A DNA stretch of 64,000 nucleotides from Acidobacterium sp. (lineage in GTDB: Bacteria > Acidobacteriota > Vicinamibacteria > Vicinamibacterales > UBA2999), in assembly GCA_002737365.1 (NCBI GenBank), contig NSIL01000003.1, positions 135,078 through 199,077 on the forward strand. The letters are read 5' to 3'. This document shows positions 1,925 to 53,068 of this stretch, piece after piece; position 1 is the first letter of the stretch; every line of letters starts with the position of its first letter. The notes below the pieces were generated by a model. The model was not told the origin of the DNA. It saw nothing but the letters and a program-made list of their open reading frames with translations, and did not search any database. The translations under genes were made by a program, and so were the position numbers.

Positions 1925-4470
1925 TCGGATTCTCCTGACTCGGGAACCATTTCCTCAGCCTTCTCGACGAGCGCAACCGAGACGATCTTGTCGTCGCCCT
2001 CCAGGTCCATCAGGCGAACACCCTGCGTGGCGCGGCCGATGGTGCGAATCTCATTAGCGGCCGTGCGCAGAATCTTGCCCTGCTCGGTGATCACGAGCAG
2101 CTCTTCGTTGTCGTGGACCTGTGTAATTGCAACGACCGGGCCGTTCTTTTCGGTCACTTCGACGTTTTTCACGCCGAGGCCGCCGCGGCCGGTGACGCGA
2201 TACTCGTCGAGCAACGTGTTCTTGGCGTAGCCCTTTTCGGTAACCGTCAGCAGCGTGCCGCCGGCCTTGGCCACCTGCATGGCCACCACTTCATCGCCCT
2301 CGCGCAACTGGATGCCGCGGACGCCGTATGCCGTGCGACCCATACCGCGCACGTCGCCTTCGCCGAAGCGGATCGCCTTGCCGGCCTTGGTGCCGATGAA
2401 GATTTCGCTCGTGCCGTCGGACATCTGCACGTCGATGACGGCATCACCTTCGTCGATGCCCATGGCGATAATGCCGCCGGCGCGGGGATTCGAGAACGCC
2501 GACAACTCGGTCTTCTTGATGGTGCCCTTGCGGGTGCCCATCACGATGAAGTGCGTATCGTCGAATTCCTTGATCGCCAGCATGGCGGCGATCTTCTCGC
2601 CGGCTTCCATCTGCACCAGGTTCGCCACCGACTTGCCCTTGCCGTCGGCGCCGACGTCGGGAATCTCGTAGACCTTCAGCCAATACGCGCGGCCGCGATC
2701 CGAGAAGACCACCAGGAACGAGTGGGTTGAGGCGACGAACAAGTGGTTGACCACGTCCTCGTCGCGCTTGCGCATGCCGATGCGGCCCTTGCCGCCGCGG
2801 TTCTGCGTGCGATAAGTCGTGATCGGGGTTCGCTTGATGTAGCCGGTATCGGTGACCGAGATCGCGACGTCCTCGTCTGCGATCAGGTCCATCATGCTGA
2901 TCTCGCTCTCGTCCTCGATCAGCATCGTCCGGCGCGGATCGGCGAACTTCGCCTTCACGGCGCGCAACTCGTCGAGGATGATCTGCAGCAACAACGGCTG
3001 GTTGGCCAGGATGTTCTTGAGCTTGGCGACGAGCGCCATCAGCTCGGCCAGCTCGCCCAGGATCTTATCGCGCTCGAGGCCGGTGAGGCGCTGCAGTTGC
3101 ATGTCGAGAATCGCCTGCGCCTGGATTTCGGACAGCGCGAACTGGGTGACCAGGCCGGCCTTGGCTTCGGGCGGATTCTTCGATCCACGAATCAGTTTAA
3201 TCACCGCGTCGAGGTGATCGAGAGCGATCTTCAAGCCGTCAAGAATGTGCGCGCGCGCCTCGGCTTTGCGCAGCTCGAACTCAATACGCCGGCGGACCAC
3301 TTCACGGCGGAAGTCGATGAAGAGCTCGATGACCTCGAGCAGGTTCAGGACCTTGGGCCGGCCGGCCACAATCGCCAGCGTGATGATGCCGAATGACTGC
3401 TGAAGCTGGGTCTGCTTGTAGAGGTTGTTCAGCACCACCTCGCCAATTTCACCGCGCTTCAACTCGATCACAATCCGCATGCCGTCGCGGTCTGATTCGT
3501 CGCGCAAGTCGGAAATGCCTTCGAGCGACTTGTCGCGCACCAGTTCCGCGATGCGTTCGAGCAATCGCGTCTTGTTCAGCTGATACGGAATCTCGTGAAC
3601 GATGATTTGCTGGCGATCGCCCTTCTTGGTGGTCTCGATCTCGGTCTTGGCGCGCACCTGGATCGAGCCGCGGCCGGTCAGAAAGGCCTCGTGGATGCCG
3701 CGCTTGCCGACAATGCTGCCGCCGGTCGGGAAATCGGGACCGGGAATGATGCGAATCAGTTCCTTGAGCTTCTGCTCGCGGGTATAGACAGGACTTGGGG
3801 CTTGGGGCTTGGGGTTTGAATCGTCACCCGACGCACTCGTCGCACTCGTCGCACCGGATCCCATCAGCGTGTTCTCAATAATCCAGATGACGCCGTCGAT
3901 CACCTCGCCCAGGTTGTGGGGCGGGATGTTGGTGGCCATGCCGACCGCGATGCCGGTCGAGCCGTTGACCAGCAGGTTCGGATACGTCGCCGGAAACACC
4001 GTCGGCTCGGTCGTCGTCTCGTCGAAGTTCGGGACGTAGTCGACCGTGTCCTTGTCGAGGTCCTGCATCAGGCTTTCGGCAAGGGCCTCGAGCCTGGCTT
4101 CCGTGTACCGATAAGCGGCTGGCGGATCGCCATCGACCGAGCCGAAGTTACCCTGGCCATCGACCAGGGTCTTGCGCATGTTGAAGTCCTGCGCGAGACG
4201 GACCAGCGTGTCGTACGCCGGCTGGTCACCGTGCGGGTGGTAATTGCCGATTACTTCGCCAATCACCTTCGCGCACTTGCGATAGGCGCGGTTCGAGGCG
4301 AGGCCCATCTGGCTCATCGCATACAACACGCGGCGATGCGCCGGCTTCAGGCCGTCGCGGACGTCAGGCAGCGCGCGCCCGATGATGACGCTCATGGCGT
4401 AATCCAGGTACGAGCGCTTCATCTCGTCTTCGATATTGACGGGCGTACGATTCTGCTCGGTCTGGGACAT
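1921..4470 (-). CDS. gyrA: DNA gyrase subunit A
   Basis: 849 aa. [26 protein letters not shown], the active-site region [10 protein letters not shown], and C-terminal beta-pinwheel repeats. Confidence 0.97.
3794..3814 (+). repeat. (CTTGGGG)x3 heptamer array inside gyrA (sense strand CCCCAAG)
   Basis: Three perfect tandem 7-nt units (21 nt), then TTTGA. Encodes NPKPQAPSP within a GyrA-specific insertion. Confidence 0.9.
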
Positions 4471-4476
4471 GGATGT

Positions 4477-7077
4477 TTAGATGTCGAGGTTCTTGACGTC
4501 GAGAGCGTTATCTTCGATGAACTTGCGCCGTGGTTCGACCTGGTCGCCCATCAGCGTGGTGAACATCGAATCGGCTTCGGTGTGGTCTTCGGCGCGCACC
4601 TGCAGCAACGACCGAATCTCCGGGTTCATTGTCGTGCTCCACAGGGTTTCGGGATTCATTTCGCCGAGACCCTTGTAGCGGTTGATGGCGACGCCCTTGC
4701 GGCCAAGTGCGATGAAGTGTTCAATGAAATCGTCAATGCTGCGGATGGCCACCGGCCCGCCTTTTGGGGCGGGTTGGGCGGGTGAGGCCGGCGCTACGCC
4801 AATCGCGCCGAGGGCGTTCTTCTCGTCAGCCGTCAGGCCCTCGTCGGCCAGTTCGACGTCTTCCGCTTCTTCGGCTTTTCCACCAGCAAGCACGCGCACT
4901 TCAACCGGGGCCTTCCGCATGGCGCGGACCACCTCCTTGATGTCCGCGTAGCTGGCGGCAAGGGTTCGGTACTCCCCACCGGTCACGAACTCGTAACCAA
5001 TCTTGTCGAAGCGCGAATAGCCGGTGGCGCGATCGTCAATGCGCAGGTTCCACGTATTGTGTTCTTCGTCGCGCTCAAGCGTGACGTCGCGGGTCGGCGT
5101 CGTCACCTGGTCGGCCAGGCCCTGCAAGCCCTCTTGTTGTTCGAAGAAGCCGCGGTCGCGCGCGCTCCGGTCGAGCAGCGCTTCGACCACATCACGGGCG
5201 TGGCCGCGGCGTTCAACCGTCGACAGCACATTGCGGTAGGCGATGATGCCGTGCAGCAGCTTCTCGAGGTCGGCGCCAACGTATTCCACGCCGTCGGCCG
5301 ACCGCACCGCGCGCGACTCAACCGCGCGATGCACCAGGAACGTCTCGAGCGCCCGCTCGTCCTTGATGAACGTTTCCGACTTGCCGCGCTTGGCGCGGAA
5401 CAGCGGCGGCTGCGCGATGTAGATGTGGCCGCGGTCGACCAGCATCGGCATCTGGCGATAGAAAAAGGTCAACAGCAACGTGCGGATGTGCGAGCCGTCG
5501 ACATCGGCGTCGGTCATGATGATGACGCGGTGGTAGCGCAGCTTGTCGATGTCGAAGTCGTCGGTGCCAATGCCGCAACCAAGTGCCGCGATCATTGTCT
5601 TGATTTCGTCTGAGCTCAGCATGCGGTCGAGCCGCGCCCGCTCGACGTTCAGGATCTTGCCCTTGATCGGCAGAATCGCCTGGAAGCGCCGGTCACGGCC
5701 CTGCTTCGCGGAACCACCTGCCGATTCGCCTTCGACAATATAGATTTCGGCCTGGGCGGGGTCGCGCTCCTGGCAGTCGGCGAGCTTACCGGGCAGCGAC
5801 AGGCCATCGAGCGCGCCCTTGCGGCGCACCAGGTCGCGGGCCTTGCGGGCGGCATCGCGGGCCCGGGCGGCGTCCACCGTCTTCTGGACAATCTTCTTGG
5901 CGATCGCGGGGTTCTCTTCGAGGAACGCGCCCAGTTTGTCGTTGACGATCGCTTCGACGATGCCCTTGACTTCGGTGTTGCCGAGCTTGGTCTTGGTCTG
6001 GCCTTCGAACTGCGGGTTCGGAATCTTGACGCTGATGACCGCGGTCATGCCTTCGCGGATGTCGTCACCGCTGATGGTCGCGTCTTTCAGATCCCTGACC
6101 AGGTTGTTGGCATTCGCGTAGGCATTCACGGTGCGCGTGAGCGCCGCGCGAAAGCCCGACAGGTGCGTGCCGCCTTCGTGGGTATTGATGTTGTTGGCGA
6201 ATGAGAACTCAACCGGGTTGTAGCTGTCGTTCCACTGCAGCGCGATCTCGGCATCGATGCCGTCGCGAACGCCGTGCATGAAGACGACCTTCTCGTTGAT
6301 CACGCCCTTGTTCTTGTTCAAGTGCTCGACAAACGACATGATGCCGCCGTCGTAGTGAAAGCGGTGGTTCTTGCCGCTATCGCGCTCATCCTCGAGCGTG
6401 ACAATCAGGCCGGCATTCAGGAACGCCAGTTCGCGCAGCCGCTGGGCGAGCGTATCGAAGCTGTAGTCGGTGGTCTCGAAAATCTGCGCGTCGGGCTTGA
6501 ACGTGACTTTCGTGCCGCGGCGTTGGGTGGTGCCGGTCACCACCAGGTCGTCGATCGGCTTGCCGCGCTCGTAGCTCTGTTGATGGGTCTGGTGGTTGCG
6601 CCAGATCTCGAGCTCGAGCCGTTCCGACAGCGCGTTGACGACCGAGACGCCGACGCCGTGCAGGCCGCCAGACACCTTGTAGCTGCTGTTGTCGAACTTG
6701 CCGCCGGCGTGCAGCACGGTCAGCGCGATTTCGGCCGCCGGGCGGCCGCTCTCGTGCATGTCGGTCGGAATGCCGCGGCCGTTGTCAATCACCGTGACCG
6801 AGTTGTCGAGGTGAATTGTAACGTTGACTTCGGTGCAGTAGCCGGCGAGGGCTTCGTCGATCGAGTTATCGACGATTTCGTAGACGAGATGATGTAAGCC
6901 GGCCGGCCCGGTGGAGCCGATGTACATCGCCGGGCGCTTGCGAACCGCCTCGAGGCCCTCAAGGACCTTAATGCTCTCCGCGCCGTAGTCTGCGTTGCCG
7001 TTGCTCGCGTTGCCGTCCGCGCCGCCGAGCCCGGCCTGATTTTCTGGTGGTTCCGTTTGGGACATGTCTTCGTTCAC
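4477..7077 (-). CDS. gyrB: DNA gyrase subunit B
   Basis: 866 aa. GHKL ATPase N-terminus ([16 protein letters not shown]), Toprim ([29 protein letters not shown]), [12 protein letters not shown]. Confidence 0.97.
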
Positions 7078-52996: not shown

Positions 52997-53029
52997 AGTG
53001 GGACATTGTACTAGATTTCACAAGGGAGA

Positions 53030-53068
53030 CCCGGGATCTGGGATCCGGGCCCCGGGCCCCGGGGGTCC
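53030..53068 (+). repeat. Heptamer array GGGATCT GGGATCC GGGCCCC GGGCCCC GGGGGTCC between the atpB start and the glnA stop
   Basis: Five G3+ runs with 4-nt loops. Confidence 0.85.

Follow-up and report, generated by a model that had tools for sequence, protein, structure and literature searches.

Palindromic repeats that lie in frame within conserved proteins, at surface positions, are known as Rickettsia palindromic elements, and 23S rRNA intervening sequences (IVSs) with an open reading frame (ORF) of the PF05635 / TIGR02436 type are excised by RNase III via their terminal stem. Another kind of bacterial repeat, the tandem heptanucleotide, has been known since 1990 and was shown in 2007 to be the most over-represented long simple repeat. 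Specifically, (GGACCGG)4 is present at 49 sites, within and between genes, in Geobacter metallireducens (Gmet_H4; Aklujkar et al. 2009, PMC2700814), Xanthomonas carries GGGAATC repeats at 186 per genome, 70 of them in convergent pairs, which form G-quadruplexes in vitro (PMC4692102), and further examples are the cyanobacterial STRR repeats (Mazel et al. 1990) and the TAACTGA repeats of Beggiatoaceae and cyanobacteria (MacGregor 2015, PMC4679880). Here we report on a stretch of 64,000 nt (the window) from a Vicinamibacterales acidobacterium (UBA2999 lineage; contig NSIL01000003.1, positions 135,078-199,077), in which tandem heptamers, GGGRTCC and CTTGGGG, are dispersed within and between genes and probably belong to small repeated elements of a palindromic type (foldback, REPIN- or IVS-like), either as their arms or as what decay has left of these arms.

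Heptamer repeats as a kind are already described in other phyla. Gmet_H4 has a near-identical unit (GGGGACC compared with GGGGTCC/GGGATCC) and, as here, about four units per copy, but it belongs to another phylum, amounts to ~49 copies per genome against one per ~3 kb in the window, and was proposed to act as regulatory RNA elements, with no palindromic pairing, core or turnover described (PMC2700814). The Xanthomonas GGGAATC and Nostoc GGGGA(C/T)T repeats are also G3-4 N3-4 heptamers with a mode near four units, form inverted pairs, lie just downstream of ORFs and vary in length and sequence between close species (PMC4692102); however, they are 89-93% intergenic whereas about half of the present loci are in frame, they are ~10x less dense, and a conserved spacer core or a gene link is not reported for them (PMC4692102). 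The STRR and TAACTGA repeats likewise are genome-wide tandem heptamers with lineage-specific units, mostly intergenic and near start or stop codons, but their units have stop codons and are rarely translated, and no palindromic element was defined for them. New here are the phylum, a density ~10x that of the Xanthomonas repeats, the placement of about half of the loci in coding sequence of housekeeping genes, and a palindromic element defined together with its core.

Near-perfect period-7 arrays, scored as at least 12 matches out of 14 at lag 7, number 20 in the window, while 100 order-5 Markov simulations gave 0.45 on average and never more than 2, and the excess is specific to this period, since the other periods from 4 to 12 gave only 0-5 arrays each. 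An initial annotation, made from the sequence alone, had counted ~22 loci with about half of them in frame; the stated array is present at every position that it listed, our recount gives 23 loci with 12 in frame (Table 1), and a remnant at 28967-28986 lies beyond its list. The same tandem unit at many loci and frequent convergent inverted pairs are features of other dispersed heptamer families; the strong non-coding bias of these families is not seen here. Exact-protein look-ups returned seven conspecific assemblies from other samples (97.5-99.8% identity), together with 10 origin-region loci at 78-97% identity, and the arrays are reproduced in all seven, which rules out an assembly artefact. 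Moreover, an Mfd scan gave 80 syntenic loci, all from Acidobacteriota and mostly from metagenome-assembled genomes of Vicinamibacterales; in the Mfd core tree the window belongs to the tight group (L002,(L044,(L001,(L010,window)))), where L numbers, as below, refer to loci of other genomes.

The GGGRTCC arrays often occur as inverted pairs, almost always with the G-rich arm first, and the spacer of these pairs, ~20 nt, is a conserved core, G(C/T)GCA(C/T)CAAGAGCTYTTTTCGA, found at at least 10 non-orthologous loci (window, L001, L002, L110, L116). The two full pairs in the window fold at -69 kcal/mol (20178..20253, z -6.8) and -57.5 kcal/mol (44142..44225, z -6.0); the former is orthologous to L002:521-607, which bears the canonical core, and in L110 the slot of the degenerate pair 9964..10040 is filled by an intact pair whose core is canonical, and that of 13196 by (GGGATCC)3. 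Orthologous slots show a series of forms. The dusB/neuB junction carries arm, core and arm in L002 but just the C-rich arm in the window and in L001; the Mfd C-terminus of L002 includes a complete pair, spacer and all, translated in frame, and that of the window has fused arms; and the spacer between the cytidylyltransferase gene and mfd is full in L001 and L002, reduced to a 20-nt remnant in the window and empty in L018. The spacer between a NusG-like gene and dusB holds a GGGRTCC element in L001, L002 and L116, a GGGGATC-arm pair in L003, a CCAGTAG-arm pair in L044, other hairpins in L008, and nothing in L010 and L004. The initial description as tandem arrays has to be amended for 17236, 50409, 32371, 9964, 10231 and 28452, which are palindromic or collapsed pairs of opposed arrays (opposed half-arms at 17236 and 50409), and its assignment of all copies to one element family gives way to at least two families. 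On the simplest reading, single arrays would be half or collapsed copies, and what is copied seems to be a palindromic element whose arms consist of heptamers.

This architecture resembles REP/REPIN sequences (repetitive extragenic palindromes and their doublets; Bertels & Rainey 2011, PMC3116915) in that inverted doublets form hairpins, singles look like decayed forms, and extragenic operon spacers are occupied. REP arms are, however, imperfect palindromes of unique sequence that bear a GTAG or CGTC tag, whereas the present arms are tandem heptamers with neither internal palindromes nor such a tag; REPINs are also tied to a gene for a REP-associated tyrosine transposase (RAYT), none of which was seen in the window, and REPs are extragenic. 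The Rickettsia elements share the in-frame position of palindromic repeats in conserved proteins, but consist of 100-150 bp of unique sequence, not of tandem heptamers, and there is no sequence relationship.

A survey of the clade (1.54 Mb from 81 genomes) gave 174 arrays in 42 genomes, with 1.71 unit mismatches within a genome and 2.72 between genomes, a contrast that 0 of 2000 permutations reached. Units are genome specific, such as AAGCCCT in L007, CCAGTAG in L044, AGGGATC in L005 and GGGAGCC in L008; L010, the closest sister genome, has 0 arrays, and the outgroups L001 and L002 share window arrays at the same sites. Presence and absence at identical sites in orthologues, which had been put forward as a check, differs between species and even within the species: the arm at 36860 is missing from L010 and from the conspecific L083, the stop codon overlapping the start codon in both, and the pair at 28452 is found among the conspecific assemblies only in the window and L081, while L082-L087 have another allele over 28446-28570. 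This tract of 125 nt, which includes the first ~20 cytidylyltransferase codons, is unalignable with the six conspecific assemblies between flanks of 98-99% identity; apparently it is a tract of recombination that includes the repeat pair. Decay by point mutation was ruled out for equal-length array-free alleles at most sites, their divergence being far above that of the flanks.

Independent microsatellites, which would arise from a slippage bias for 7-nt units (polymerase footprint, Mrazek and colleagues, 2007) together with selection for stop-free units, are an unlikely source of the arrays, in line with the initial annotation. Slippage could account for whole-unit differences in intergenic arrays (window 44142 compared with L083, and the arms at P0178 and P0213), for a 9-nt repeat in the GyrA loop that differs by one unit between strains, and for the over-representation of heptamers among long repeats that is cited for many bacteria. 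It leaves unexplained why the same unit is present at 16 loci or more, and provides no account of a conserved non-repeat core between arms at non-orthologous loci, of the fixed G-then-C polarity, of genome-specific units, or of a closest sister genome (L010) that is array-free at equal composition.

We regard it as quite improbable that the arrays are G-quadruplex (or i-motif) elements under selection for a regulatory role, an idea put forward for GGGAATC in Xanthomonas and GGGGAYT in Nostoc. Arrays do account for 8 of the window's 10 canonical quadruplex motifs, and related repeats fold so in vitro (Rehm et al. 2015, PMC4692102), but only ~10 of 26 arrays have at least four G3 tracts, many having three, and the relaxed CTTGAGN copies have no G3 tracts at all. 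In addition, sister-genome units that are devoid of G-tracts (CCAGTAG, AAGCCCT, AGGAATC) have an unchanged architecture, and half of the copies lie inside coding sequence in either orientation. The G-rich strand of the window arrays is on the leading strand in 11 cases and on the other in 5, a bias that is not significant.

The 12 in-frame copies all lie outside conserved domain cores, in hypervariable loops, linkers or tails, as had been claimed, and their hosts are GyrA, Wzt, Mfd (two copies), DusB (two copies), an NtrC-type activator, a major facilitator superfamily (MFS) transporter, AtpF, a PCYCGC protein, a sigma-factor tail and a basic repeat protein; the peptides quoted by the initial annotation were all found in ORFs with the Pfam identities that it gave. 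The copies at the Dabb and cytidylyltransferase genes are only apparently N-terminal and actually precede the true start codons. The units GGGATCC, GGGGTCC and CTTGGGG are indeed stop-free in six frames; the relaxed CTTGAGN variants contain TGA, the copies that do so being intergenic, and the element as a whole is not generally stop-free, only its arms. Single arms may persist inside genes because their units are stop-free in every frame, and the encoded peptides, rich in Pro/Gly/Ser/Asp/Arg or in Pro/Gln/Ala/Ser/Lys, would be suited to disordered loops. Translation of both orientations, as initially stated, applies to GGGRTCC (4 vs 4) but not to CTTGGGG, where the sense strand is always CCCCAAG (5/5 coding copies in the window), presumably tolerated alone because the opposite strand would encode Leu and Trp. 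A TTTGA 3' flank said to be shared by the gyrA and 43814 copies is merely a degenerate terminal unit (GGTTTGA and GGCTTGA).

Relative to E. coli GyrA, the GyrA array falls within 30 residues inserted between positions 199 and 205, in a hypervariable loop of ~5 to 30 residues among Vicinamibacterales, and PKPQAPSP is present in 3 of 28 GyrA sequences. The loop also has a 9-nt tandem repeat, CGCACTCGT (ATSATSAS), at 3832-3854, which is one unit shorter in L106 and L113 (96.9% identity), a classic case of in-frame slippage. The AtpF tail array is present in L002 and L007 and absent in L001, L004 and L008, the array at 39110 is shared with L001, L010 having another insertion at that position, and the DusB array at 35183 is shared with L044, L001 and L003.

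Between strains the coding arrays are stable: in-frame arrays have the same length in the conspecific assemblies in 10 of the 10 cases covered, and they vary by point substitutions only, at ~1.5%, the background rate. The only array that varies in unit number among conspecifics is the intergenic pair 44142, with one additional unit in L083. Since their copy number is constant, the coding copies are not phase-variation loci, for which a change of unit number between close strains would be expected, and it is very improbable that the arrays are contingency loci in which unit number switches genes via frameshift or promoter spacing: a 7-nt unit does shift the frame, and several arrays lie a few bases from start codons (13196, 35357, 36860, 50409), but the hosts are housekeeping genes (gyrA, mfd, dusB, atpF) and not surface determinants. 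That the peptides are ancestral functional low-complexity linkers with a secondary DNA periodicity is hardly credible either, for although the DusB 35183 segment equals the non-repeat segments of L010 and L002 in length and is partly alike (QSTPPRAEAS vs QASSPRPQAS), the same units also occur in intergenic spacers and on both strands, the GyrA segment is absent from E. coli GyrA and from orthologues at 88-90% identity, and the loop sequence differs in every genome.

The same architecture is found around a gene. In the sister genome L001 the slot of a 41-nt spacer of the window (38724-38764) is occupied by a 600-nt cassette (L001:21545-22149) composed of a G-rich arm, a 123-residue ORF and a C-rich arm. 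Its product matches PF05635 (23S_rRNA_IVP) and TIGR02436 (four-helix-bundle protein) with E ~1e-30 and has weak similarity to Avd of diversity-generating retroelements; this gene family we take to be the one that is found in 23S rRNA IVSs and is distantly related to Avd. In the predicted RNA fold the two arms make a stem of ~50 bp. Like 23S rRNA IVSs, the cassette has a long terminal inverted repeat around a small ORF, and the ORF-less pairs likewise have a terminal inverted repeat that forms a stem; unlike them, the cassettes lie between protein-coding genes and not in rRNA, and the window has only ORF-less pairs and single arms, the PF05635 / TIGR02436 gene being present with the same arms in L001.

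A tandem-repeat arm was found at 16/16 independent four-helix-bundle loci, on both sides at 15/16 and heptameric at 14/16, these loci being search hits and not a random sample. The hosts are Acidobacteriota, Cyanobacteriota, Gemmatimonadota, Bacteroidota and uncultured lineages, the 15 loci outside L001 being counted to six phyla; heptamer-armed cassettes occur at P0122, P0136, P0178, P0137, P0170 and P0213, and by locus number the cassettes are L001, L097, L117-L129 and L130-L147. The purine-rich arm is upstream and the pyrimidine-rich arm comes right after the stop codon. Octamer arms flank the four-helix-bundle gene of a Gemmatirosa plasmid (L134; GGCAGGAG / CTCCTGCC). By eye, the cassette leaders have a common CAGATCTCAGAAA-like motif. 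Two plasmid cassettes lie between cas6 and cas4 of a CRISPR-Cas locus (L132, Anabaena sp. 90 pANA02; L133, a Pseudanabaena plasmid), and another lies between the genes for two ribonucleotide reductase subunits. Two derivations of the elements were rejected. That the ORF-less pairs are internal-deletion derivatives of the L001 cassette was not borne out: local alignment of the cores with cassette interiors is no better than with shuffles, and a 10-mer common to both, CTTGATGCCC, is probably due to chance. Spread by phages was discarded with three or more perfect units in only 6 and 11 viral contigs; a four-helix-bundle homologue was found in 0 of 50,697 phage genomes.

We tentatively suggest, as a possibility only, that bacterial heptamer families such as these and the cyanobacterial STRRs are arms, or orphan arms, of widespread selfish stem-loop cassettes carrying a PF05635 / TIGR02436 gene. 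No paper linking the PF05635 family to heptamer repeats was found in the open-access literature, and heptamer arms enclosing such a gene seem to be undescribed. If true, the arms would let the cassette be cut from host transcripts, and orphaned arms would seed in-frame low-complexity loops in host proteins.

Returning to palindromic elements with heptamer arms as the source of the window arrays, a complete copy would have two complementary arms, a G-rich one with 3-8 heptamers in tandem followed by a C-rich one, and between them a short spacer that in the GGGRTCC family is the conserved core. Copies would pile up in unconstrained sequence, i.e. gene junctions, short operon spacers and the surface loops, linkers and tails of proteins, and subsequent deletions would leave collapsed pairs or single arms. 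In transcripts the paired arms would form perfect stems of 25-50 bp, and by analogy with 23S rRNA IVSs these may be RNase III or mRNA-stability sites. Several observations weigh against this reading. Neither target-site duplications nor fixed termini were seen at filled-versus-empty junctions, and Pfam searches of the 52 window genes, four other ORFs and rpmH revealed no transposase, RAYT, integrase or reverse transcriptase. Miniature inverted-repeat transposable elements, by contrast, have terminal inverted repeats with a target-site duplication and a parent insertion sequence that shares their ends. The CTTGGGG-type pairs have no conserved spacer, the exact core gave a single match in JGI metagenome contigs, at an orthologous slot, which indicates a narrow family, tblastn found no four-helix-bundle gene in the window, and the core has no significant similarity to the interior of the L001 cassette; whether the change ran from full to half or from half to full is judged by parsimony among five genomes. 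The initial interpretation as a spreading element filtered by selection is, as a whole, partly supported: its non-microsatellite origin stands, while active spreading we can only infer, no target-site duplication, defined ends or mobiliser having been found. The elements may copy themselves, and the single arrays may derive from full elements and not the reverse.

Table 1. Heptamer-repeat loci of the window by family, followed by the arms of four-helix-bundle cassettes at other loci
Family	Feature	Coordinates	Strand	Context
GGGRTCC	Degenerate inverted pair, core-like spacer ATCGAAGGTCTTTTTTGACC	9964..10040		dnaA-rpmH intergenic (origin) region
GGGRTCC	Single G-rich arm	13196..13219	+	7 nt past jag stop, 2 nt before mnmE ATG
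GGGRTCC	Collapsed palindrome of opposed units	17236..17265		rsmG-parA spacer; fold z -2.2
GGGRTCC	Full inverted pair: G-rich arm, 14-nt diverged core, C-rich arm	20178..20253		thiL-atpF' spacer
GGGRTCC	(GGGRTCC)4 in frame, RDPGSGVRDP	27913..27946	+	Wzt aa 279-290; linker from ABC ATPase domain to Wzt_C
GGGRTCC	Collapsed remnant CCGGGGTCTGACCCCGATCC	28967..28986		Slot full with core in L001, L002; empty in L018
GGGRTCC	Array in frame, LRDPGSGVPEPGE	30010..30045	+	Mfd aa 333-344, between UvrB-interaction and RID domains
GGGRTCC	G-rich arm joined to C-rich arm without core, QPGAGVREPGSRVP	32369..32410		In frame, Mfd C-terminal region
GGGRTCC	Single C-rich arm, SRIPDPGPRS	35357..35386	-	DusB C-terminal tail; stop overlaps neuB ATG
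GGGRTCC	Single arm	36860..36888	+	5' untranslated spacer of Dabb gene; true ATG near 36856
GGGRTCC	Array in frame, DRDPGSGVRNPESG	37704..37745	-	Basic repeat protein without Pfam match
GGGRTCC	Array in frame, DRDPGPRIP	39110..39131	+	Loop in AAA+ lid, NtrC-type sigma-54 activator
GGGRTCC	Variant GGGNNCA array	41708..41740	+	C-terminal extension, sigma-70 family protein
GGGRTCC	Full inverted pair, conserved core in reverse orientation	44142..44225		Between MFS and PCYCGC genes
GGGRTCC	Seven-unit array in frame, RPDPGSQVPDPGPRTPDPG	44806..44861	+	Central cytoplasmic loop, MFS transporter
GGGRTCC	Collapsed palindrome filling 35-nt spacer	50409..50435		S9 peptidase / SpoIIE-type phosphatase genes; z -2.1
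GGGRTCC	GGGNNCC array, intergenic	53030..53065	+	Between atpB and glnA
CTTGGGG	(CTTGGGG)3 and degenerate unit; sense CCCCAAG, NPKPQAPSP	3790..3819	+	GyrA aa 218-227
CTTGGGG	CTTGAGN / TCAAGCC inverted pair	10228..10296		rpmH-rnpA spacer; -33.5 kcal/mol, z -3.2
CTTGGGG	(CCCCAAG)4, GQAPSPKPQA	21339..21372	-	C-terminal tail, ATP synthase subunit b; stop overlaps atpH ATG
CTTGGGG	CTTGAGN / CCCAAGC inverted pair	28452..28506		Spans wzt stop, ends at cytidylyltransferase ATG (28507)
CTTGGGG	CCYCARG-type array in frame, LQASSPRPQAS	35183..35212	-	DusB aa 281-291
CTTGGGG	(CTTGGGG)4, sense CCCCAAG	43810..43846	+	PCYCGC protein, N-terminal to its domain
Cassette	Arms CTTAGGG / CCCCAAG	L097:3000-3426		Viral-collection contig
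Cassette	Arms GGGRTCC			L001 cassette slot in relatives
Cassette	Arms GGGATCA, GGGATTA, GACAGGC			Three unrelated metagenomic loci; whole-unit copy-number differences between samples
Cassette	Both-side arms at 9/10; octamers in one			Ten plasmid loci: Nostoc, Calothrix, Anabaena, Pseudanabaena, Stanieria, Geminocystis, Leptolyngbya, Gemmatirosa, Riemerella

The host is described as a soil or freshwater acidobacterium. The window, with a G+C content of 63.3%, represents the chromosomal origin region: dnaN, gyrB and gyrA are on one side of dnaA, rpmH, rnpA, yidD, yidC, jag, mnmE, mnmG, rsmG, parA and parB on the other, and ATP synthase genes, wzm/wzt, mfd, dusB and other genes lie farther along. 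Genes were called by third-position G+C and checked with Pfam. Around the origin itself (9836-10300; dnaA, rpmH, rnpA), both the dnaA-rpmH and the rpmH-rnpA spacers hold repeat pairs. The protein without a Pfam match that hosts the array at 37704 is encoded on the minus strand at 36907-38109; it is lysine-rich, has 357-400 residues and contains KPAWKPKG-like repeats. Searches against Rfam gave 0 matches in the window, L001, L002, L010 and L044. At the dusB/neuB junction (window slot 35357-35387), the place of the heptamer arm is taken in L044:4974-5487 and L010:16361-16669 by a conserved non-coding insert of 300-500 nt, again with no Rfam match, which has GTGGGGACAAACC hairpins ahead of it.

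Other repeats are also present. Perfect hairpins with a variable stem of 7-9 bp and a constant C-TTTA-G loop constitute a second repeat family (window 24388-24407, 48348-48369 and 48956-48973), with 32 in the 1.54 Mb of clade DNA, where TTTA/TAAA is the commonest 4-nt loop despite a G+C content of 64%; two are in frame in the S9 peptidase gene, and they use the same variable slots as sister-genome heptamer arrays. A third repeat of ~25 nt, GCT(A/T)CGGCGGGRCAAGCC-like, is found at 11014, 24100, 41785 and 60712. It is translated in frame within yidC, atpG and the sigma-factor tail, with the peptide FAKATVDK, and recurs at variable slots in L002, L007, L008 and L010. Finally, period-8 arrays replace period-7 arrays in some genomes (L016, L008 and L063), with six in L016.

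Such repeats have practical consequences in that they break assemblies and, lacking stop codons, also lengthen ORF calls. Public collections contain many GyrA and four-helix-bundle proteins that are cut short or lie on contigs of ~1 kb, which is consistent with short-read assemblies breaking at the repeats. The window resolves heptamer repeats into defined palindromic elements and their decay products, and indicates that elements of this kind can densely introduce disordered loops into proteins as essential as GyrA and Mfd. Moreover, the association of heptamer arms with PF05635 genes across phyla provides, as a hypothesis, a pointer both to the origin of the repeats and to the role of the PF05635 protein.

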